A stretch of DNA of 64,000 bases from Candidatus Saccharimonadales bacterium (GTDB taxonomy: Bacteria > Patescibacteriota > Saccharimonadia > Saccharimonadales > UBA4665). The notes beneath the pieces are model-generated. The model was not told where the DNA came from and made no database searches. It worked only from the letters and a program-made list of their open reading frames with translations. Below are positions 12,570 through 64,000 of the stretch, piece after piece. Where the stretch lies: contig DATKHB010000027.1 of NCBI GenBank assembly GCA_035510455.1, positions 373-64,372 on the forward strand, given 5' to 3'. Made by a program: the position numbers and the translations under genes. Each line of letters opens with the position of its first letter. The first letter of the stretch is position 1.

Positions 12570-14405
12570 ATGGAAAACGCTAAACAACAAGCTATAGAGC
12601 GTATAAAACAGGCTAATAATGTATTAGTTACGGTTAGTAATAACCCATCTGTTGATCAACTGTCAGCTTGTATTGCCCTAACTCTCATTCTAAACAAGCT
12701 AGGGAAGCACGGAACGGCAGTTTATAGCGGCCAAACACCCTCCATTATTGAGTTTCTTCAGCCCGAAAAGACAATAGAGAAGAACACTGACAGCTTGCGT
12801 GATTTTATTATCGCATTGGATAAGTCAAAAGCCGATAAATTGCGCTATAAGGTCGAAGACAAAGTAGTTAAAATATTTATTACTCCTTACCGAACTAGCA
12901 TTAGCAAGGATGATTTAGACTTCAGCCAAGGAGACTTTAACGTTGATGTGGTTATTGGCTTAGGGGTTCATCAGCAGTCCGATCTTGATCAGGCCATAAC
13001 AGCCCACGGCAGAATTTTACATGACGCAACCGTAATAACATTTAACGTCACGCCAAATGGCGATCTGGGCAGCATTAATTGGCAAGATCCTTCGGCCAGC
13101 AGTCTCAGTGAACTAGTATCAGTTTTGGCTACTGAAATGGGCAGCAGCTTATTGGATAACCAGATAGCAACCGCCTTACTAACAGGTATAGTGGCCGAAA
13201 CTAACAGATTTAGTAACGATAAGACTTCGGCTAAAACTATGAGTATCAGCTCTCAGCTTATTTCTGCGGGAGCCAACCAGCAATTGGTTGCCAGCAAGCT
13301 TGATCAGCCGGCAAAGCAAGCCGCCAATCCCGGTTCGTTAGATTCTCCTAAAAAGGACAGTCCTCTAGCTGAACCGGCTGATGGCGATCAGCCAACAGAT
13401 CAACCAGATGACGGAGCCATTGAAATATCTCATAACGATGATAATACAAACGAGCAGCCGCCACCTCCGCAGATTGATATTGATGACCACGGTAACATTA
13501 TGGGGAACGACGATTCTGCCAGCAAAACCGATCAAGCGGCCCAGCCAACTAACCAGTCGGAACTGAGCGGCGGCACAGCGCTAGTCACCGAACCGCCCAT
13601 TTTAGGGGGAACACTGACCGCTAACTCTTCGCAGACAGAAGACGTGGAACCCTCAACCGATCCTTTGAGTCTACCAACTGTCCAGCAGCCCTTGTTAAAT
13701 AGGCAGCCCTTAGGTGCTAATAATCCTCTTCCAGATAGAGTTCCTACTGACGGTGAGCCCCAAACTCTATCGCAAATTGAACAAGCGGTTAACAGCCCTC
13801 ATTTATCTATGCCTGAAGAATCTACCGTGCAACCATTTCTAGAACCCCCACCTAATCCTCAATCAACTCCTGAACCGCTACCAGAACTTAACCCAGAAAT
13901 TGTTCCCGAACAAAATAATAACTCGCCAGTTGAAGAGCCCAGCGCCGGTAATAATGCTGATCAGAATAATTCGTCTAGCGAAGAGCCCCACATCGACAAC
14001 GCCCGAGACGCTGTGCAAGCAGCCATTAATGCTTCACCAGAAACCCAACCGCTAGAACCGGTTCAGTCTCTTAATGCCCAGCCTGTCTTCGACAGCATGA
14101 ACGATGACACGCATGACCAAGATCAAGAAAATCCGCTTCCGGTGTTAACGCCGGCACCAACTGTTGCTCCATCGTCCCAGTCATTTGTCAGCCCACAGGG
14201 ATCTCCTGTGCCGCCTCAAGACACCTTTGCAGACCCAACCCAACCCAACCACCTAGACACATTTAACATGCCAATGCCCCAGCAGCCACTACAGCCTTTT
14301 AGCGATCCCTCTATGAGCAATAACCCATCTCCATTTATGCCATCGGCAGATAATGACAATCCACCACCGCCAGTTCCTCCGCCAATGATGCCGCCGGTAG
14401 TCTAG
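12570..14405 (+). CDS. DHH-phosphoesterase-like N-terminal domain fused to a long Pro/Gln/Asn-rich low-complexity tail
   Basis: The first ~240 aa have NrnA/DHH-like topology, but the metal motifs look degenerate (NPSVD instead of NPDGD; no DHH triad found). Residues ~245-611 are low complexity. Confidence 0.45.
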   Translation: MENAKQQAIERIKQANNVLVTVSNNPSVDQLSACIALTLILNKLGKHGTAVYSGQTPSIIEFLQPEKTIEKNTDSLRDFIIALDKSKADKLRYKVEDKVVKIFITPYRTSISKDDLDFSQGDFNVDVVIGLGVHQQSDLDQAITAHGRILHDATVITFNVTPNGDLGSINWQDPSASSLSELVSVLATEMGSSLLDNQIATALLTGIVAETNRFSNDKTSAKTMSISSQLISAGANQQLVASKLDQPAKQAANPGSLDSPKKDSPLAEPADGDQPTDQPDDGAIEISHNDDNTNEQPPPPQIDIDDHGNIMGNDDSASKTDQAAQPTNQSELSGGTALVTEPPILGGTLTANSSQTEDVEPSTDPLSLPTVQQPLLNRQPLGANNPLPDRVPTDGEPQTLSQIEQAVNSPHLSMPEESTVQPFLEPPPNPQSTPEPLPELNPEIVPEQNNNSPVEEPSAGNNADQNNSSSEEPHIDNARDAVQAAINASPETQPLEPVQSLNAQPVFDSMNDDTHDQDQENPLPVLTPAPTVAPSSQSFVSPQGSPVPPQDTFADPTQPNHLDTFNMPMPQQPLQPFSDPSMSNNPSPFMPSADNDNPPPPVPPPMMPPVV

Positions 14406-56426: not shown

Positions 56427-56501
56427 GCCCCTGTAGTTCAATGGATAAAACAACTCCGTCCTAAGGAGAAGCTCCACGTTCGAATCGTGGTGGGGGCACC
56501 A
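56427..56501 (+). tRNA. tRNA-Arg (anticodon CCT), CCA encoded
   Basis: Hand-folded cloverleaf. Acceptor GCCCCTG/TGGGGGC (two G-U pairs). Anticodon stem CTCC/GGAG with loop GTCCTAA. T-arm CCACG-TTCGAAT-CGTGG. Discriminator A followed by CCA. Confidence 0.8.
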
Positions 56502-57112: not shown

Positions 57113-58181
57113 CGCAAAAAAAATATTATCCAAGATACCAGTCCGTCGAAAAAAGAAAGATGTAGCTGCGAGATTCGATGAGGCGGTTCAAAATCTACCA
57201 AAAATTACTAACGATACGGTCTCGGAACACCGTGAAGAAGTCCTGTCCACTGCGCGCAAGTATATATATCCACTTCAACATTCAAAACATCGTATAGTTG
57301 TTATATCAACCATATTATTTACGCTAGTCGTGCTATTGTTCTTTTCTTATTGCGGACTGGCTCTCTATAGATTCCAGTCTAATTCTGGGTTTATCTATGG
57401 GGTTACACAAGTCATACCTTTCCCGATAGCAAAGGCTGGCCCAAGCTATGTATCTTATGATAGCTATCTCTTTGAACTTAGGCATTACACGCACTACTAT
57501 CAAACTCAGCAAGGCATTAACTTTAATAGCCCAGCAGGTAAGGACCAGCTCAACAGCTTTAAGCATCAGGCATTACGGGAGGTGATTGCAGACGCATTTG
57601 TTAAGCAATTAGCTAGTAGAAACAATGTATCGGTCTCTAGCCAACAGCTAAATAACGAAGTTGATCTAATACGCTACCAAGACGGATTAAGTAATAATGA
57701 AAAAGAATTTGAGGACGTACTAAGCCAATTTTGGGGATGGACGGTGGCTGATTTTAAGCAAGAACTAAAACAACAACTCCTAAGCCAGGATGTAGTAGCA
57801 AAATTAGATACAGCGACCAATCAACGCGCTCAGTCAGTTTTGGCGGCTCTTCAAAACGGGGCAGACTTCGGGACACTGGCTGGTGAGTACTCTGATGACA
57901 CAACGACCAAGAGCAACGGAGGCCAATTCAGCTTCTTGATCACCCAAACAACGCGCAACCTCTCTCCGCAGACCCTAAACACTATTTTGAATCTTAAACC
58001 AGGTCAGATATCTGGGATAATTAATATCGGTAATGCACTAGAAATAGATAAGGTGATATCTACTACCAACGGAAACATACAAGCCGCTCATATATTGTTT
58101 AATTTTAATAGCATCAATACTTACTTACAGCCCCTAGAGGCTAAAGAAAAAATCCATACCTATATAAAGCTTCCCGCTTAG
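57102..58181 (+). CDS. membrane-anchored parvulin-type peptidyl-prolyl isomerase (PrsA/SurA-like)
   Basis: One TM helix and a PpiC-like segment (LQNGADFGTLAGEYSDD...NGGQFSF...PGQISGII). The ATG at 57102 is preferred over 57072. Confidence 0.7.
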   Translation: MKHNAKKILSKIPVRRKKKDVAARFDEAVQNLPKITNDTVSEHREEVLSTARKYIYPLQHSKHRIVVISTILFTLVVLLFFSYCGLALYRFQSNSGFIYGVTQVIPFPIAKAGPSYVSYDSYLFELRHYTHYYQTQQGINFNSPAGKDQLNSFKHQALREVIADAFVKQLASRNNVSVSSQQLNNEVDLIRYQDGLSNNEKEFEDVLSQFWGWTVADFKQELKQQLLSQDVVAKLDTATNQRAQSVLAALQNGADFGTLAGEYSDDTTTKSNGGQFSFLITQTTRNLSPQTLNTILNLKPGQISGIINIGNALEIDKVISTTNGNIQAAHILFNFNSINTYLQPLEAKEKIHTYIKLPA

Positions 58182-58249
58182 TTAAGTTTGATTTTTACGG
58201 GTTAGGCTGATATGATGACCTCTGTTCTAGGCTTCATTATTTATACTAT

Positions 58250-58326
58250 GGGCTCGTGGTGTAGTGGCCTAACATGCCTCCCTGTCACGGAGGAGATCGC
58301 CGGTTCAAATCCGGTCGAGCCCGCCA
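58250..58326 (+). tRNA. tRNA-Asp (anticodon GTC), CCA encoded
   Basis: Acceptor GGGCTCG/CGAGCCC. Anticodon stem CCTCC/GGAGG with loop CTGTCAC. T-arm GCCGG-TTCAAAT-CCGGT. Discriminator G followed by CCA. Confidence 0.88.
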
Positions 58327-59784
58327 ATCTGCATTTTGAGAGCACTCTGCGATTACATCAAAGGGTGCTTTTAGATTAGAAACGAGCTTTTTATCGTGTA
58401 TTTCCAAGTTAGATAGTAGAAACCGCAATAGCTTTGATTTTAAGGCTGCTTTCGAACTTTGGAACAACTTAGGGGCTTTTGCAGCTATCTCTAACAGATA
58501 CGAGCTGGTCAACATAAAGGATTTGTCGTTATGCGTTAGGCTCATTAGCTGCTCGTCTAATTGCTCTTGCCGAGCCTTATAGTCTTTAACATATTCGTCA
58601 TAGTCAGTGAGAGTAATACGCCCGTCGAGCCTGTCCTCGTATAAAACACGCAGCTTTTTCTGTATTGTGTCGTATTCGGCACGGGTTTGTTCTATGGCGT
58701 TGGCGTAGTAAAGCTGCTGGTTATCGTGGTGCTTACGCAGCTCGTCAATCACATAACTGATTATGTCCTCGTTCATTTCCAGCTTGCCGACAAGCTCGGC
58801 TATCTGTGGCACAAGCTCACTTTCTTTGATATGCACCTGTTTGCACGGACCTTTGCCCTTGCTGCAATGCATATAAACCTTACCTTTGGCCGTATAGGAC
58901 GACACACTACAACCGCAACTACCGCATTTGAGCAGCCCGTTAAACGTGTAATCGGTAGCTTGGGTCTTAGTTTTGTTATTGGTGCGTTGGTCATTTACTG
59001 CTTGCACTTTATCGTATAGCTTACGGCTGATAAGCGGTTCATATTTGTGTGTGTAGAGTTTGTTGCTATATCGCATAACGCCGTGATAGAACGGGTTTTT
59101 AAGTATCTGCTCGACGTGGCGTTGGCACATCAGGTTTTGCTTTGGCGTATTGTTCCGTAAGCCTTGCTCACGCAACTCGGCGGCAATGGCACGATATGGC
59201 TTACCAAGTGACCGCATTTGAAAGGCTTTAATTATATACGGTGCTCTGGCAGCGTCTTGCACAATGGTCGTTTCTTTATCGCTAATACGCTGATTAAGAT
59301 AGCCAATGGGTGCTTTACCAGGCCACTCGCCGTCATGTAGCTTTTGCTCAAAGCGACGCTTCACGTTATCTCTAATGCTGTCGGAGTAGTATTTTGCCAG
59401 CACAACTCCAATACCGAGCCTAAACAAGTCGGACGCTGGCGAGTTTTTGTGAACAAACAAATTGTCCGACGGAAAGTGTAACTCTATTTTGCCAGCCTCA
59501 CGCAGCTTGTTCAGTGCTTTTACCTCGTTTTGGTGCAAGTCACGGCTAAAGCGGTCTATCTTGTCAAAGACGACAATGCTTTCTGCTGGATATGCCTGAA
59601 TTGCTTTTACAATCTCTGCAAACTCGGTTCGAGTGTCCTTGTAGGCTGTTTCGTCAAACTCAAATAACTCGTAATCATAGCCTTGCTGCTCGGCGTATGC
59701 CTTAATTCGCATTACCTGGGCAGGTAAGGCTTGGCGTTGGTCTACGTCCGATACTCTGGCTATCAAAAATGCTTTAGTTTTCAT
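58285..59784 (-). CDS. large serine recombinase (integrase)
   Basis: N-terminal resolvase catalytic domain (AFLIARVSDVDQ, IVVFDKIDRFSRD), recombinase domain, zinc ribbon (CGSCGCS...HCSKGKGPC) and a coiled-coil region. The last 14 codons are antisense to tRNA-Asp. Confidence 0.88.
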   Translation of the reverse strand: MKTKAFLIARVSDVDQRQALPAQVMRIKAYAEQQGYDYELFEFDETAYKDTRTEFAEIVKAIQAYPAESIVVFDKIDRFSRDLHQNEVKALNKLREAGKIELHFPSDNLFVHKNSPASDLFRLGIGVVLAKYYSDSIRDNVKRRFEQKLHDGEWPGKAPIGYLNQRISDKETTIVQDAARAPYIIKAFQMRSLGKPYRAIAAELREQGLRNNTPKQNLMCQRHVEQILKNPFYHGVMRYSNKLYTHKYEPLISRKLYDKVQAVNDQRTNNKTKTQATDYTFNGLLKCGSCGCSVSSYTAKGKVYMHCSKGKGPCKQVHIKESELVPQIAELVGKLEMNEDIISYVIDELRKHHDNQQLYYANAIEQTRAEYDTIQKKLRVLYEDRLDGRITLTDYDEYVKDYKARQEQLDEQLMSLTHNDKSFMLTSSYLLEIAAKAPKLFQSSKAALKSKLLRFLLSNLEIHDKKLVSNLKAPFDVIAECSQNADWRARPDLNRRSPP

Positions 59785-59834
59785 ATGTGTCCCTTCTCTT
59801 TAATTATATAACATTTAGTAACAACAAGTAACAA

Positions 59835-60962
59835 TTATAAATTGCCCTTAATCTGGTCCATGTGGGTAGGTTCAAACTGCTCAAGCATTGTATTTATGCC
59901 GAGTATTGTTTTGTATTGAACCTTTTTAGGCTGCTTAGTAAGCGGCTTTAGCCTGGACCAAGCGTGTTTGCCAAAACGGTCCTCAAACATTGTCCTAACG
60001 TGCCGCTGCTCACTCTTGGTTAGGAGCAACATCATACCGAGCCGTGCGGCTGCCTGTGTTGGCCCTGTAAGCCCATCTGACTGCAATATGTTGGCCAGCA
60101 GCTTGTCGGGGTCGTCGGTATCTAGTGCTAGCTTTGGTAAGTTGCTAAAAAAGTTTTGCCAGTGGTGTTGCAGCAGTGCCTTTGACAGGGTGACAGAGTA
60201 AACGCTCTTAAAGGTTAATGGTTTATCAAAACCGACGGCTGCTAAAGCGTCTGTAATCTTTCTTTTGCCATTTAGCCTTACCTCATACCGCATAACTGCA
60301 ACGGGCTGTTGCCGAGCTAACTGGTCTAGCAAGTCGAGCTGCACAAAGTTATCTTTTTCTTGTGCTCGCTTTTCGCTGGTCTTGGCTTGCCGCAAGTCTG
60401 CCAGCTTGTCGTAAATAGCAATGTCTAACGAGTTAGTATGGACGTGTAACACATAACCGCCATTACGAAAGTTAGTATCTTGCACGTCGTAGGTTTTGCT
60501 TATATCAGCGGTGCGTAACATTTGCAGAACAGCCGAGCAGGACGTGTAATCGTTAAACACAAAGTTTTTGCTGTAATGCAAAGCCCGAACATCTGCCGTT
60601 TCAAGCTGTTTTGTAAAAAGCCAAACGCCCATTTCTTTAAGCGTTTCCTGTAACTGCTTAATGACCAGGTTATAGTCTGCGTCGGTTAGCTCATCAAAGT
60701 TGTTGCCAAACGCAATCTTAGGCAGAGACAGCTCAATCGCAAGTTCATAGGCAGCTCGTTTGTAGCCTCTTGGTCGCTGGGTATATGTCAGGCGAGGCTG
60801 GTATTTACCGAGCTTTTTAAACGCTGCCGATGGGTTAGCAACAGCCTTAAAGTAGCCATAGTAGTCGGGTCTACAAGCGTCAAGCGTCGGCTGAAAGTTG
60901 GCCCGTGAGTAAAGCGGTTTGTCCATTTTTATCACTAGCTTTATGGTGTCTATCATTTTCAT
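59835..60962 (-). CDS. putative replication initiation protein (phage/plasmid gene II/X-like)
   Basis: The MIDTIKL N-terminus and the LSLPKIAFGNNFDEL segment recall the II/X Rep family from memory only. The ATG at 60962 has an AAGGA SD. The track ORF starts at 60995. Confidence 0.4.
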   Translation of the reverse strand: MKMIDTIKLVIKMDKPLYSRANFQPTLDACRPDYYGYFKAVANPSAAFKKLGKYQPRLTYTQRPRGYKRAAYELAIELSLPKIAFGNNFDELTDADYNLVIKQLQETLKEMGVWLFTKQLETADVRALHYSKNFVFNDYTSCSAVLQMLRTADISKTYDVQDTNFRNGGYVLHVHTNSLDIAIYDKLADLRQAKTSEKRAQEKDNFVQLDLLDQLARQQPVAVMRYEVRLNGKRKITDALAAVGFDKPLTFKSVYSVTLSKALLQHHWQNFFSNLPKLALDTDDPDKLLANILQSDGLTGPTQAAARLGMMLLLTKSEQRHVRTMFEDRFGKHAWSRLKPLTKQPKKVQYKTILGINTMLEQFEPTHMDQIKGNL

Positions 60963-61224
60963 CACGTCCTTTAAAAAGTTGTTGGCACTTTTCAATCACT
61001 GCTTGCTCAATCAGCTTGCCAACGTCCCTGTTTATAGGGTGGTAGAGGTTTAACTCTTTGTTGCCGAGCTTTTTGGTCGGGTATGTAATCCGAAGCGTGC
61101 CGTCTAAGCGGCTATGTACGCCAATAGAGCCGAGGTAGAGGCTGTCATCTATGACTACGCTGGCAAACGCTACTAAACCGTTATTTGGCTTTACAGGCAC
61201 TACGTTTACCTCGCTAACTAACAT
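60880..61224 (-). CDS. SpoVG-family protein
   Basis: VNVVPVKPNNGLVAFASVVIDDSLYLGSIGVHS...ITYPTKK...LYHPINRDVGKLIEQAVIEK aligns by eye with the SpoVG core (..[20 protein letters not shown]...FVAMPSKR...DIAHPIN...). GAGG SD before the ATG at 61224. The 3' end overlaps the Rep start by about 83 nt. Confidence 0.6.
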   Translation of the reverse strand: MLVSEVNVVPVKPNNGLVAFASVVIDDSLYLGSIGVHSRLDGTLRITYPTKKLGNKELNLYHPINRDVGKLIEQAVIEKCQQLFKGRDENDRHHKASDKNGQTALLTGQLSADA

Positions 61225-61522
61225 TGCAATCCTCTTGGCACTCTGGCGTTTTGCACGGGCCTTCAAGTAGCAAGCTAATGTAGGCTCTTATTGCTCGCAT
61301 TTGTTTATGGTCTAGCTCGCTGATTAACGACCTAATATGGTTTGAGGTTGCTTGGCTGCCGATAATGGCTCGCAAATAACCCTCTGCTTCTTTAGCAATC
61401 TGCTCAACCTCATCTATTTCGGCGTTCCAAATAATCATCTTGGCAGCTTGTAGGCGGCACTCATTGCACCAGGCTAAAACCGTGTCAGCTATTGCTTGTT
61501 TGCTCTCATCGCTCATTTTCAT
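61214..61522 (-). CDS. hypothetical protein (element)
   Basis: 102 aa from the ATG at 61522 (AAAGGA upstream). The track ORF extends to 61561. No family recognised. Confidence 0.4.
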   Translation of the reverse strand: MKMSDESKQAIADTVLAWCNECRLQAAKMIIWNAEIDEVEQIAKEAEGYLRAIIGSQATSNHIRSLISELDHKQMRAIRAYISLLLEGPCKTPECQEDCNVS

Positions 61523-61673
61523 CAATCCTTTCTTGCTCTTTAAGTTCCAGGTCCATTTCAATTAGCACGTCAAAGTAGCCAACTAAGTTGGCTGTTGCCA
61601 GTTCGTCTCGACCAAGCTCGGCAATAAAGTCTTGCAAAGCGACGGGGTTAGGTTGCTGGTTACTTTGGTGCAT
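61506..61673 (-). CDS. 55-aa acidic hypothetical protein (below the ORF-track cutoff)
   Basis: Hand translation gives MHQSNQQPNPVALQDFIAELGRDELATANLVGYFDVLIEMDLELKEQERIDENER. It overlaps the next gene's start by 17 nt. No clear SD. Confidence 0.25.
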   Translation of the reverse strand: MHQSNQQPNPVALQDFIAELGRDELATANLVGYFDVLIEMDLELKEQERIDENER

Positions 61674-61733
61674 AGTAACCATTAAGACGACCCTGTCGTT
61701 TAACAGAGTTTAAACTGGTGGAAAACTACGTTT

Positions 61734-62906
61734 TTACAGATTAGAGAGGTAGTTTGGATTTATATAGACCCTGTAATCCAAGAGCACAAAAAACTCGACC
61801 ATTTGACCTTTTGTAGCAACGGCTATTTTGCCGTTTAAGGCCGTGATGTAACCTTTGATAATGCTATTAAACTGTTCTTCATTGCCGTCCATATCAAGCC
61901 GCATACCAAAAGCCTCAAGCATAAAGTCCGCAATGTCCCACTTTTTGACAAAGTTAGCTACTGAGCTAACAAATAAGTCCACGAACTTTGCCTGTTTTGA
62001 GCTACGTTGAACATCTACCTCATAACCTTTAAGCACTAGTTTTGAGCTTTCATATCTAAACCTTGCGTCGGCAAAGGCAATCTTTGACAGGCCACTAGGT
62101 AGCTGGTTCTTAATCAGGCTCTTTACCTTTGCCAACTCGCTGCGGGTGGCGTGTAATTCGGTAAACAGTAGGTCGAGCTTTGCCGTGCTTATAAGCTGGT
62201 AATCGTCGTTAATCCGCTTTGTGCGGCTGGTATCGCTAACAATGGCAACATTGCCGTCACGGTCAATAACATCTATCACATCAACGTCAATTACCTCTGT
62301 TGGCGTAAACCGTGCCAGGCTCATACCGAGTGAGGCTATATCAACACTAAGAGCCTTAATAATCCTGTCGCTAAAGAGTTGCATATCGGCAAACAGGCTG
62401 CGGGTTATATTGGTGGCATTTATGGCTTGAGCAAATGATTGGCTGGCAAGTATACCTGTAACGGCTAGGCTTTTCTGCAAACCGACAAGCTGTCGGCTCG
62501 GTAATATAAGGTTTGAGCGTAGGGTGTCGGTAGCAAGTGCCATTTTGCTAATATCCTCTAAGATACGGCTCGTTGGTAGCATATTTATCGCCCTAAACAC
62601 TGCCGTAAAGTCGTATTGTGCATTGAGACGTGACATAAGCTCGGCTGCCATTTTATCGGCCTGTTCAAGCTGCTTTAGCTGTGTTGGTGTAAGTAGATTA
62701 GGGTCTTTTTTGGCTAATTCTTGCCACTCACGCAGGGTTAAGCCTTTGTGGTATTTAGGGTTGTCAAGGTTTAAGATATGAGGCTTTGACGTAACAGTAA
62801 GCTCAACGGGCTTTGTCTCTCGTTGCTTTGGCGATGACTTACGAGCCGCTTTAGGTTGCGGCTTTTTATTGGGTTTATCAGGCTGTTTGTCGTATTTTTT
62901 CATCAC
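61734..62906 (-). CDS. hypothetical protein with Lys/Pro-rich N-terminus (element)
   Basis: 390 aa; the N-terminal 40 aa are KP-rich and basic. No motif recognised. First gene of the minus-strand block. Confidence 0.5.
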   Translation of the reverse strand: MMKKYDKQPDKPNKKPQPKAARKSSPKQRETKPVELTVTSKPHILNLDNPKYHKGLTLREWQELAKKDPNLLTPTQLKQLEQADKMAAELMSRLNAQYDFTAVFRAINMLPTSRILEDISKMALATDTLRSNLILPSRQLVGLQKSLAVTGILASQSFAQAINATNITRSLFADMQLFSDRIIKALSVDIASLGMSLARFTPTEVIDVDVIDVIDRDGNVAIVSDTSRTKRINDDYQLISTAKLDLLFTELHATRSELAKVKSLIKNQLPSGLSKIAFADARFRYESSKLVLKGYEVDVQRSSKQAKFVDLFVSSVANFVKKWDIADFMLEAFGMRLDMDGNEEQFNSIIKGYITALNGKIAVATKGQMVEFFVLLDYRVYINPNYLSNL

Positions 62907-62936
62907 GTCTTTCCAAAAACTACACTATCGCAGCTA

Positions 62937-62972
62937 CTCACACTCTTGTATGATAATGGTATCAAGTGTGAG
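62937..62972. promoter_or_regulatory. imperfect inverted repeat in the element's divergent control region
   Basis: CTCACACTCTTG (62937-62948) pairs with CAAGTGTGAG (62963-62972) and flanks TATGATAAT. The 3' arm overlaps the GAGG SD of the HTH gene. Confidence 0.3.
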
Positions 62973-62977
62973 GTTAT

Positions 62978-63163
62978 ATGTCACAAAAAGATTTACCAGA
63001 ATTGCTAACACTAAAACAGGCTTGCGAGCTATTGCAGGTGCACCCAAACACGCTGCGTAACTGGGATAAGTCTGGCACGCTCAAGGCTATTCGTATTGGT
63101 GAACGTGGTTTACGACGCTACAGAAAAGCTGATTTATTAAAGTTTACGGAACATAAAAAATGA
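62978..63163 (+). CDS. excisionase-family / MerR-like helix-turn-helix DNA-binding protein
   Basis: 61 aa. LTLKQACELLQVHPNTLRNWDKSGTLKAIRIGERGLRRYRKADL is the typical HTH_17/excisionase pattern. Confidence 0.75.
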   Translation: MSQKDLPELLTLKQACELLQVHPNTLRNWDKSGTLKAIRIGERGLRRYRKADLLKFTEHKK

Positions 63164-63831
63164 AACTTATAGACACAAAGCCAGGCGAGTTAAAAGCAAA
63201 ACTTGATAAATATCTATCCCAGGATAGCAAATATAAAGCAGTTTTTGAGTATACAAAAAAGCGATTTGATGAGGCTGGACATTTACCTGCTCACAACTGG
63301 GCACACGCTTATCGGGACACTCTTAATGCTATTGTTGTTGGCGAAGCAGAAGGTGCAGACATGGCCATTGTGCTACCAGCAATAACAATGCACGATATAG
63401 GCTTTCTGTATGGTGCTACTGGTAGGACGCACGGGGCTGTTGGTGCAGACAAACTAGCAGAGTATTTGCAGGAAGGCGGCATTGAGTACCCGCAAGACAC
63501 AGTCGAAAAGATGGCAGACTGTATCCGCACGCACAAAGGTAGTATGCACAACGAAAAACCAGAAAGCCTAGAAGCAAAAACTGTTGCTGACGCAGATTTG
63601 CTTGAAAAGTTTGGTCCGTTTGGTGTGTATCAAAATATCCGTACTTTTACCGAGTTTAACTGGCCGTTGGAACAATCACTTGAACGACAGACAGAGATTT
63701 TTACCCTTACCCTTGAGACCGAGACTGGTAAACGGCTTGCCGAACCAGGTAGACAATTTGTCGCTAACTTTTATAAAGAATTGGCCGAAGCATACGAGCC
63801 ATATCAGGAGCAAAATAATGTCGGATACTGA
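63160..63831 (+). CDS. HD-domain phosphohydrolase
   Basis: H..H (HNWAHA), HD (ITMHDIGF), RTHKG and DADLLEK motifs; 223 aa. ATGA overlap with the upstream gene. Confidence 0.7.
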   Translation: MKLIDTKPGELKAKLDKYLSQDSKYKAVFEYTKKRFDEAGHLPAHNWAHAYRDTLNAIVVGEAEGADMAIVLPAITMHDIGFLYGATGRTHGAVGADKLAEYLQEGGIEYPQDTVEKMADCIRTHKGSMHNEKPESLEAKTVADADLLEKFGPFGVYQNIRTFTEFNWPLEQSLERQTEIFTLTLETETGKRLAEPGRQFVANFYKELAEAYEPYQEQNNVGY

Positions 63832-64000
63832 ACAAATCAACCAACTACTTAATGCAGCTAAGACCACACTAGACTTTGGCGATAACCAAAACCATACAGT
63901 TGCAGCCGCAGTCTTATCAGATACGGGCAAGGTTTATACTGGGTTAAACCTATTTCATTTTACAGGTGGCCCGTGTGCTGAAATAGCTGCATTGACGGCG
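63818..64000 (+). CDS. cytidine/deoxycytidine deaminase-like protein, N-terminal fragment (runs off window)
   Basis: Hand translation gives MSDTEQINQLLNAAKTTLDFGDNQNHTVAAAVLSDTGKVYTGLNLFHFTGGPCAEIAALTA, which includes the (P)CAE zinc/catalytic motif of small CDA-type deaminases. CAGGAG SD upstream. Not in the ORF track because no stop lies within the window. Confidence 0.6.
   Translation, partial: MSDTEQINQLLNAAKTTLDFGDNQNHTVAAAVLSDTGKVYTGLNLFHFTGGPCAEIAALTA

Follow-up and report, generated by a model that had tools for sequence, protein, structure and literature searches.

A probable integrative rolling-circle plasmid of Saccharibacteria at the 3' end of a tRNA-Asp gene

Introduction

What has entered a saccharibacterial chromosome at the 3' end of a tRNA-Asp gene, and could a large serine recombinase (LSR) have put it there? 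This question is raised by a 64,000-nt stretch of DNA from a Candidatus Saccharimonadales bacterium (contig DATKHB010000027.1 of assembly GCA_035510455.1), which we call the window; coordinates refer to its positions 1-64,000 unless a locus or contig is named. An initial annotation, made from the bare sequence, had placed the start of a block of mobile-element genes at the end of this tRNA gene. It listed a 499-aa LSR, a Rep-like protein, a SpoVG-like protein, three orphans on the minus strand, a divergent helix-turn-helix (HTH) gene and HD and deaminase genes, and it regarded the pairing of an LSR with a tRNA gene as unusual. All these genes are indeed present, and the block begins where it had been placed, with a recombination core in the last seven tRNA bases (58320-58326). 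We consider it very probable that an integrative rolling-circle plasmid, intact and 8,271 bp long, was inserted at the tRNA-Asp 3' end of a Saccharibacteria bacterium by its own LSR, and that the region holds its left 5.7 kb.

To our knowledge, the LSRs of phages and of integrative and conjugative elements (ICEs) target protein-coding or intergenic sites and not tRNA ends, and we know of none among them whose attP lies inside the int open reading frame (ORF).

Results

The recombinase gene ends inside the tRNA gene

The recombinase shows the features that define LSRs, namely an N-terminal resolvase-type catalytic domain with conserved Ser, Arg and Asp residues and a C-terminal recombinase domain with a zinc ribbon. 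Pfam matches were obtained for Resolvase (PF00239, 2.3e-15), Recombinase (PF07508, 1.1e-13) and Zn_ribbon_recom (PF13408, 7.8e-6; 26.6 bits against a cut-off of 25.3). Furthermore, PHROG 95 'integrase' matches residues 1-470 at 2.6e-67, and a coiled-coil-like segment was recognised by eye. Residues R10, S12, Q16, D74, R78, R81 and D82 are kept in 118-119 of 121 homologues. A sequence match to a solved LSR structure was not detectable.

The last 14 codons of the gene (DWRARPDLNRRSPP plus the stop) are the reverse complement of tRNA-Asp positions 35-76. The codon TGG (W487) corresponds to the CCA end of the tRNA, and all residues from W487 on are encoded by the tRNA antisense strand; the peptide after TGG reads RARPDLNRRSPP, and the stop codon, TGA, coincides in part with the anticodon.

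Both ends of the element and the restored recombinase

The junction at the tRNA, attL, reads ...GGTCGAG-CCCGCCA-ATCTGCATTTTGAGAGCACTCTGCG. The other junction, for which the initial annotation had recommended extending the contig, was found on L001, an 8,605-nt Logan contig from a permafrost run of the same sample. This contig was located by an exact-protein look-up; of the words sampled from the window, 99-100% are present in its run. The contig matches window positions 58297-64000 at 100% identity (5,704 nt) and continues for 2.9 kb, adding DUF488, DUF4352, XRE and NUDIX genes and the start of a second deaminase gene. A second CCCGCCA lies at L001 8295-8301 (window-equivalent 66591-66597, about 2.6 kb past the window end) in the context GTTCGCAATGTTTGTACCAGTC-CCCGCCA-AGCATAAGC. 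This is attR, and the unit length of the element is 8,271 bp.

Antisense to L001 8301-8179 we found a peptide that shares 61% identity with the C-terminal LSR tail of a circular relative, P0001. When the attR arm is joined to the sequence right of the attL core, an uninterrupted LSR ORF of 527 aa results, which ends in WRGLVQTLRTSAKNFESYEIDDLADAIQLYEPDLALSFSAS. In this circle form W487 is followed by an element-encoded tail of 41 residues (RGLVQTLRT...YEPDLALSFSAS), whereas the integrated 499-aa form has 12 residues after W487 that come from the tRNA antisense strand. The attP junction of the excised window element, joined in silico, would read ...GTACCAGTCCCCGCCAATCTGCATTTTGAG.... A loose end consisting of TTGCAAAGGTGGTGAGTTAATACGAGGTAT followed by TTGATTT was also considered as attR and was rejected; it has neither the CCCGCCA core nor the tail exon and is absent from the window, the loci and viral_contigs. 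Neither the window nor the related islands contain a long direct repeat of the tRNA, which fits a serine recombinase.

Circular relatives, a second integrated copy and unoccupied sites

Relatives of the element occur as closed circles. P0001, with a 529-aa LSR that is 87% identical to that of the window, was found in five separate runs on contigs of 8,742-8,763 nt, all of them 100% identical rotations of one sequence. In four of the five contigs the two ends overlap by 29-30 nt (by 30 nt, equal to k-1, in three of them), which closes them into an 8,733-bp circle. P0002 (LSR 81% identical) lies on a circle of 10,877 bp, and P0070, which belongs to a clade associated with tRNA-Asn, on a circle of 8,669 bp in two runs. 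The attP of such circles, for instance GTTCTCAATGTTACAACTAGCC-CCCGCCA-ATCAGCATTTTGAGAACACTCTGCG, aligns with the window attL from the core rightwards and with the L001 attR from the core leftwards, and the LSR tail at the attR of the window element is homologous to the tails of circular relatives with LSRs of 81-87% identity.

A second integrated copy with both junctions is present at locus L097, a 141-kb scaffold with P0005 (LSR 76% identical, 499 aa, tail WRARPDSNRRSPP). Here, tRNA-Asp (863-940) is followed by attL, an 11.9-kb element, an attR core GCT-CCCGCCA (approximately 12871-12877) and then the terminator hairpin of the tRNA; the tail exon lies antisense at 12876-12760. This element has the same backbone as the window element, together with metal-resistance cargo.

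An empty tRNA-Asp site, which had been suggested as a comparison in the initial annotation, was found in L086 and in the peat run X3. In L086 a tRNA-Asp identical to that of the window is directly followed by ATATGC and the terminator. In X3 a 570-nt contig joins the window's own left flank (57799-58332) to the same terminator as in L086. The sole mismatch of this contig to the window is ATCTGC to ATATGC at 58329, where the window has the element-type C and the unoccupied site an A. The C at 58329 is thus derived from the element, and the crossover therefore lies left of this position. The circular relatives, the unoccupied tRNA-Asp sites and the second integrated copy fit an element that is moved by its LSR.

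Anatomy of the attachment sites

CCCGCCA is the only block common to attL, attR, attP and attB; the window copy has one extra A (core of 7-8 nt). For attP, the best dyad symmetry is obtained with the centre placed on the first CC (13, 11 and 11 of 24 positions match in three elements), and this CC is the probable cut dinucleotide. Both attP arms contain a G(T/C)TC(T/G)CAA..TG motif that starts exactly 22 nt from the CC centre. In attB, the T-loop GTTC(A/G)AATCC of the tRNA (GTTCAAATCC in the window) starts 17 nt from the centre. The same geometry of 22 nt in attP and 17 nt in attB was observed in the tRNA-Asn clade, where the centre is GG at tRNA positions 70-71.

In the work of Rutherford and colleagues from 2013, the outer motif of serine integrase attB sites reportedly lies 5 bp further in than in attP. 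By analogy, the 5-nt inward shift observed here would be the same shift, and we infer from the motifs that the zinc-ribbon domain of the LSR reads the T-loop-like motif. The motif also appears in the protein, since translation of the attP-arm motif (ACATTGCGAAC) yields the conserved TLRT of the free tails. Further towards the C-terminus, the free tails are conserved only within subclades.

A family of recombinases with tRNA-antisense tails

We found more than 750 homologues of the LSR at E below 1e-20. Among 121 aligned LSRs, 119 have W at the junction column, and 95 have tails that resemble tRNA antisense (W..[DG]SN..). A further 13 have conserved element-encoded tails, which fall into three classes, and the remaining 13 are truncated or other. 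The commonest tail class, WLRRLDSNQ, corresponds to tRNA-Asn(GTT), as confirmed with ARAGORN in L100 and L103. In both the Asp clade (TGA; window 58284-58287) and the Asn clade (TAA; L100 and L103), tRNA positions 35-37 provide the recombinase stop codon. In the frame in which CCA is read as TGG, a stop at these positions would arise only for the anticodons NTC, NTT and NCT. This limit may bias which tRNAs yield a short, defined tail.

The pairing of LSR and tRNA defines a large LSR family in Saccharibacteria and the Candidate Phyla Radiation (CPR) whose ORF spans attP. The pairing is not a one-off, and it has a precedent in the recombinase DsiB (see Discussion). Our full-text searches gave no account of elements that combine a serine recombinase with a tRNA, nor of such plasmids in Saccharibacteria. 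The window element belongs to a large and, as far as we found, unpublished family of saccharibacterial integrative rolling-circle plasmids, within which it is specific for tRNA-Asp.

A distant recombinase clade (26-29% identical to the window LSR) is also found at tRNA-Asp. It has attR sites of its own, ATAGTTCCATA...GGCCCGCCA (L010:9199; L071:18408; L027:14821 and 16345), and a conserved element-encoded tail, WRA(V/L)...(V/I)WNY(F/L)A(S/T)N. The layout in which the ORF spans attP is therefore older than the clade of the window.

Backbone, cargo and kind of element

The features of the region are listed in Table 1. All relatives examined share a backbone in which an excisionase-type (Xis-type) HTH gene, at the same position in each, is divergent from an operon comprising the 390-aa orphan, two small ORFs, the SpoVG-like gene, rep and the LSR gene. 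The SpoVG-like gene has the same position in L088, L093, L097, L100, L103 and L107. XRE and DUF4352 genes lie on the other side of the element, and there are two cargo slots.

Table 1. Features of the tRNA-Asp locus and of the integrated element within the window
Feature	Position	Strand	Evidence and remarks
tRNA-Arg(cct)	56427-56501		ARAGORN
tRNA-Asp(GTC), intact	58250-58326	+	ARAGORN; 3' part is the left (B) arm of the attachment site
LSR, integrated-state isoform, 499 aa	58285-59784	-	Pfam, PHROG; antisense into tRNA-Asp
attL common core CCCGCCA(A)	58320-58327		tRNA positions 70-76 plus one base; putative central dinucleotide CC at 58320-58321
P' arm of the attachment site with CATTTTGAGAGC	58328-58352		Inverted copy of the GTTC-type motif, 22 nt from the centre; kept in attP of L088, L093 and L097
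Putative rolling-circle replication initiator (Rep), distant gene-II/G2P (PF05144), 375 aa from the MIDTIKL start	59835-60962	-	Homologue matches
SpoVG-like nucleic-acid-binding protein, backbone	60880-61224	-	PF04026, 9.6e-9
Orphan, about 100 aa, backbone	61214-61516	-	Gene call in L001; no Pfam or PHROG match
Orphan, 58 aa, backbone	61506-61682	-	Syntenic small ORFs in relatives
Orphan, 389/390 aa, basic KP-rich N-terminus, first gene of the backbone operon	61734-62906	-	49 homologues, none annotated
HTH_17/MerR excisionase-type protein, 61 aa, divergent from the backbone operon	62978-63163	+	PF12728, 2.7e-13; PHROG 66 'excisionase'
HD-domain phosphohydrolase, cargo	63160-63831	+	PF01966; NF007515, 4e-12; other genes in its place in relatives
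Cytidine-deaminase-like gene, cargo	63818-64000 (cut by window end)	+	133 aa in L001

The putative assignment of Rep comes from its homologues: PF05144 (Phage_CRI) is matched by 19 of 46 aligned proteins that are 35-93% identical to the window Rep (best E 8.4e-8). Y184 and H175 are invariant in the alignment, and the AlphaFold2 model has a pLDDT of 88.9. The protein would act in rolling-circle replication. Locus L103 has a DnaD_N/HTH_36 protein in place of Rep. For the 390-aa orphan (pLDDT 61.5), the best Foldseek match was VirB8/TraE-like and weak (E about 0.08), and none was significant against the PDB. The 61-aa HTH_17 protein is a candidate recombination directionality factor (RDF).

The cargo of the window copy consists of the HD, cytidine-deaminase-like, DUF488 and NUDIX genes. 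PADLOC found no named defence system in the element, and its only matches were to candidate families, for DUF488 (PDC-M45B) and NUDIX (PDC-S07). The cargo of relatives (L093, L097, L100, L103/L104 and L106) includes copper/cation efflux genes with a CsoR-type repressor, ApeA-HEPN, a methyltransferase and ResIII-helicase pair that resembles a restriction system, and an MmeI-like/SNF2-PLD block with an SLFN/AlbA_2 gene. An FtsK/SpoIIIE-type translocase is encoded in L106; no FtsK/TraB-like dsDNA translocase was found in the 8.27-kb element of the window.

The gene content also bears on the question of whether the element is a virus, that is, a provirus or phage satellite with packaged circles, for which the virion functions would come in trans or from unannotated proteins such as the 390-aa orphan and the small ORFs. 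Several features would suit such a virus: Rep is of the gene-II type, a family typical of filamentous phages, no function could be assigned to the 390-aa protein or to three small ORFs, the circles measure only 8.7-10.9 kb, and the XRE gene together with the Xis-type switch resembles a lysogeny module. However, we consider a virus unlikely. The initial annotation had recognised no virion gene in the visible part, and this extends to the whole element, among whose proteins Pfam, PHROGs and NCBIfam revealed no capsid or coat protein, terminase or Zot-type ATPase; likewise, no portal and no hydrophobic coat-like protein was found with Pfam and PHROGs. A 30-nt search of viral_contigs was also empty, but its query proved not to be the element's own end. 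Moreover, the cargo of the relatives (metal resistance, restriction, defence and the FtsK-type translocase) is like that of plasmids and ICEs. Rather than a prophage or a fixed region, the element is best described as a small integrative rolling-circle replicon, similar in logic to the actinomycete integrative and conjugative elements (AICEs) but with a serine integrase.

Mobility of the window copy

The same element was found at 100% identity in several peat and permafrost runs. Its GC content is unremarkable (0.448 compared to 0.436 ± 0.013). In contrast, the tetranucleotide composition of 58327-64000 lies at a distance of 0.32 from that of the remaining window, whereas 53 chromosomal windows of equal size have distances of 0.141 ± 0.018 with a maximum of 0.20, none reaching 0.32. 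The compositional check proposed in the initial annotation thus singles out the element by tetranucleotides and not by GC, and the deviant composition fits recent mobility.

Several observations weigh against our interpretation as an intact integrative plasmid. The right end of the element rests on L001 and not on the window's own assembly. The 'empty site' contig of X3 crosses a 77-nt tRNA that is common to another strain, and it could conceivably be a chimera of the de Bruijn graph, although the left flank of that strain was not seen in X3. The right (B') arm differs among the three reconstructed attB sites and has no clear motif. The window Rep itself has no match to PF05144 or any other Pfam family and no PDB match by fold (Foldseek) or by sequence, and no transfer or packaging gene was identifiable on the window copy. 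Lastly, a circular form, which the initial annotation had proposed to look for, was obtained for relatives but not for the window copy: its attP junction did not appear among Logan contigs from 16 of the 24 listed runs, and in X1 and X2 the 8.6-kb contig continues through attR without a break. Excision, if there is any, is rare in the sampled runs; this is weak negative evidence because contigs drop rare variants.

Contig depth was compared between the element and its left flank and amounts to 45.1 and 32.5 in X1 (ratio 1.39) and to 93.2 and 97.7 in X2 (0.95). We set aside the possibility of reading extra element copies from these ratios, as they are too noisy. X1 also contains, at a depth of about 23-26, another strain whose left flank differs and whose site is unoccupied.

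The lack of an attP junction in any run examined could also mean that the element is an immobilised relic, once mobile and now fixed, in which the extension of the LSR ORF into the tRNA is a truncated leftover and the tail overlap has no function. There are clear relics downstream (a deaminase gene interrupted by an IS3 element and a degenerate tRNA-like scar), and decayed islands abound at the locus, which is a hot spot. We nevertheless regard a relic as quite improbable: none of the backbone ORFs is disrupted, the catalytic residues are conserved, and at attR the 41-codon tail exon has an open frame and is homologous to the tails of the circular forms. An unoccupied site with the same left flank, the still foreign tetranucleotide composition and the identical element in several peat and permafrost runs speak against it as well.

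In run X24, a 400-nt contig corresponding to window 58203-58547 joins another tRNA-Asp 5' half and its upstream flank to the identical 3' half and the element end. We set this contig aside as evidence for a second host, as it is probably an assembly chimera formed via a 31-nt stretch (58276-58306) that is a separate high-depth node in other runs. That the element spreads mainly by homologous recombination via conserved flanking tRNA genes after natural transformation, and not by its LSR, is most improbable: the island does lie between the conserved tRNA-Asp and, in relatives, tRNA-Thr/Gly, and the X24 contig would count in favour of such an exchange, but this contig is doubtful for the reason given, and the precise CCCGCCA junctions, the reconstitution of the ORF and the match of the circle attP to the junctions are the signature of site-specific recombination.

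Relics downstream of the element

Past attR, the second cytidine-deaminase gene is interrupted by an IS3-family element (rve transposase and an 85-aa orfA; L084:1658-2850, window-equivalent about 66.9 kb), and the Logan contigs of two runs stop exactly at the edge of this IS3 element. It is followed by a degenerate tRNA-Asp 3' half, TTCGGAAATCCGACTCGATGT-CCCGCCA (L084:3005-3051), which closely resembles one of three tandem attR-like scars in L027 (17070-17110). It appears from this that recombinases of at least three clades have integrated serially at this tRNA. In L087 (2118-5065), a recombinase-less island of 2.84 kb with three unannotated ORFs lies between tRNA-Asp and a CGGCCCGCCAATATGC scar, with a copy of the tRNA terminator hairpin on each side. 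By analogy with the ssrA islands of Dehalococcoides, older elements seem to be displaced downstream each time a new one integrates at the regenerated tRNA end.

The tRNA-Asp locus in related Saccharibacteria

The PpiC/SurA-like protein encoded next to the tRNA gene matches only Saccharibacteria metagenome-assembled genomes, at up to 63% identity in a collection without the window's own genome. In these relatives the order of the locus is tRNA-Arg, membrane protein, PpiC, tRNA-Asp, a variable stretch, tRNA-Thr, tRNA-Gly and tRNA-Val. The gap between tRNA-Asp and tRNA-Thr varies from 0.58 to 9.5 kb and several contigs stop at tRNA-Asp; the locus is therefore a hot spot.

In the initial annotation, the same gene block next to tRNA-Asp in all related genomes was named as the mark of an old, domesticated region. 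Instead, we found a long ORF that runs into tRNA-Asp in the CCA=TGG frame at only 5 of the 59 loci of related species with this tRNA, and the frame is open for 0-98 codons in the other 54. Four of the five ORFs exceed 300 codons, and the fifth leaves its contig at 284. The LSRs of these five relatives are only 26-29% identical to that of the window, yet they end in the tRNA in the same frame.

At least a dozen related genomes (loci among L004-L083; L097) have tRNA-Asp on the opposite strand and several kb from the PpiC gene, and in some the Asp, Gly and Thr tRNAs are tightly clustered in inverted orientation. Around the hot spot, the segment with tRNA-Asp has undergone repeated inversion or rearrangement in related Saccharibacteria.

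Discussion

How could the element move between its two states? In the life cycle that we propose, the LSR recombined attP with the tRNA-Asp 3' end, with the crossover inside CCCGCCA (tRNA positions 70-76), and the tRNA stays intact because the element supplies identical bases. The attP site would act as an imperfect palindrome of about 50 bp with motifs 22 nt from CC, and its chromosomal counterpart would be the tRNA T-loop 17 nt away. Since attP lies inside the LSR ORF, two isoforms are encoded, one of 527 aa on the free circle and one of 499 aa in the integrated state. Excision probably needs the divergent 61-aa Xis-type HTH protein, and the excised circle would then replicate via the gene-II-type Rep. 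Movement from cell to cell would occur by means that the window copy does not encode; some relatives carry an FtsK-like translocase.

A more far-reaching idea, which we put forward tentatively and with some doubt, concerns the whole clade. LSRs across the CPR may read universal tRNA features (the T-loop GTTCRAATCC at a fixed 17 nt, the acceptor end and CCA) as the chromosomal half-site, and the attP arms, which would copy the T-loop motif, may allow hops among tRNA species (Asp, Asn and others). Recombination at an attP within the ORF might moreover rewrite the enzyme, from a 527-aa circle form with an acidic tail to a 499-aa form with a short, basic tail encoded by the tRNA. If the two differed in activity or directionality, the tail swap might serve as a built-in sensor of the state of the element.

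The closest published precedent, and the only one that we found for this layout, is the CcrB-like serine recombinase DsiB of the Dehalococcoides ssrA islands (McMurdie et al. 2011, PMC3146451), which sits at the end of a tRNA-like gene with an overlap of ORF and att site. As with DsiB, the LSR lies beside attL, integration takes place at the 3' end of a tRNA-like gene, the stop codon of the recombinase depends on the state of integration, and tandem islands pile up downstream of the target (PMC3146451). The authors of that study also raised the idea of an enzyme that is fully functional only on the circle (PMC3146451). However, the two systems differ in several respects (PMC3146451). The ssrA islands target a tmRNA, with a 20-bp direct repeat and insertion in the T-loop, whereas here the target is a tRNA with a core of 7-8 nt and a crossover in positions 70-76. 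They also have a second, small serine recombinase, DsiA, whereas we found one recombinase only. Furthermore, the ssrA islands have no replication gene and no circles have been reported for them (PMC3146451), whereas the present family has a Rep gene and, in relatives, closed circles.

The attachment sites of LSRs are short and quasi-palindromic (attP about 50 bp, attB about 40 bp), strands are exchanged at a central dinucleotide, a long direct repeat is lacking, and excision depends on an RDF. The window element shares with phiC31, Bxb1, A118/LI, TP901-1 and SPbeta SprA the Resolvase and Recombinase domains and the zinc ribbon, its attP likewise appears to be short and quasi-palindromic, and the RDF of phiRv1 is of the Xis type, to which the small HTH protein is a comparable candidate. 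AICEs such as pSAM2 and SLP1 are integrative plasmids of about 9-24 kb in tRNA 3' ends that encode int, xis, a rolling-circle Rep, regulators, often NUDIX and a single FtsK-like translocase; their integrases are typically tyrosine recombinases, and their attP sites contain long segments of tRNA identity. The window element resembles them in its integration at a tRNA 3' end, in the combination of int/xis with a rolling-circle rep, in its NUDIX gene and, in relative L106, in the translocase. It differs from them in the serine integrase, the Rep family, the absence of a translocase on the window copy and the host phylum; the known hosts of Saccharibacteria are Actinomycetota. An attP within the integrase gene, with integration changing the C-terminus, is known from Myxococcus phage Mx8 (IntP/IntX), and in SSV1 the int gene is split by integration. 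In contrast to the LSR described here, these are tyrosine recombinases, with another chemistry and another att architecture.

Plasmids have rarely been studied in CPR bacteria (PMC12023590), and hardly any plasmids or integrative elements of Saccharibacteria and other CPR bacteria have been described. The family described here comprises small replicons of natural origin together with a system for site-specific integration at a defined tRNA; these could become genetic tools or vectors for CPR epibionts that are hard to manipulate. It also provides a large natural set of enzymes that target tRNA ends, and their attB half-site, apparently the universal T-loop, could explain how targets are switched. 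As attP lies inside the ORF, the two isoforms of the enzyme can be compared directly in vitro. Lastly, these elements move genes for defence, metal resistance and nucleotide metabolism among ultra-small bacteria.

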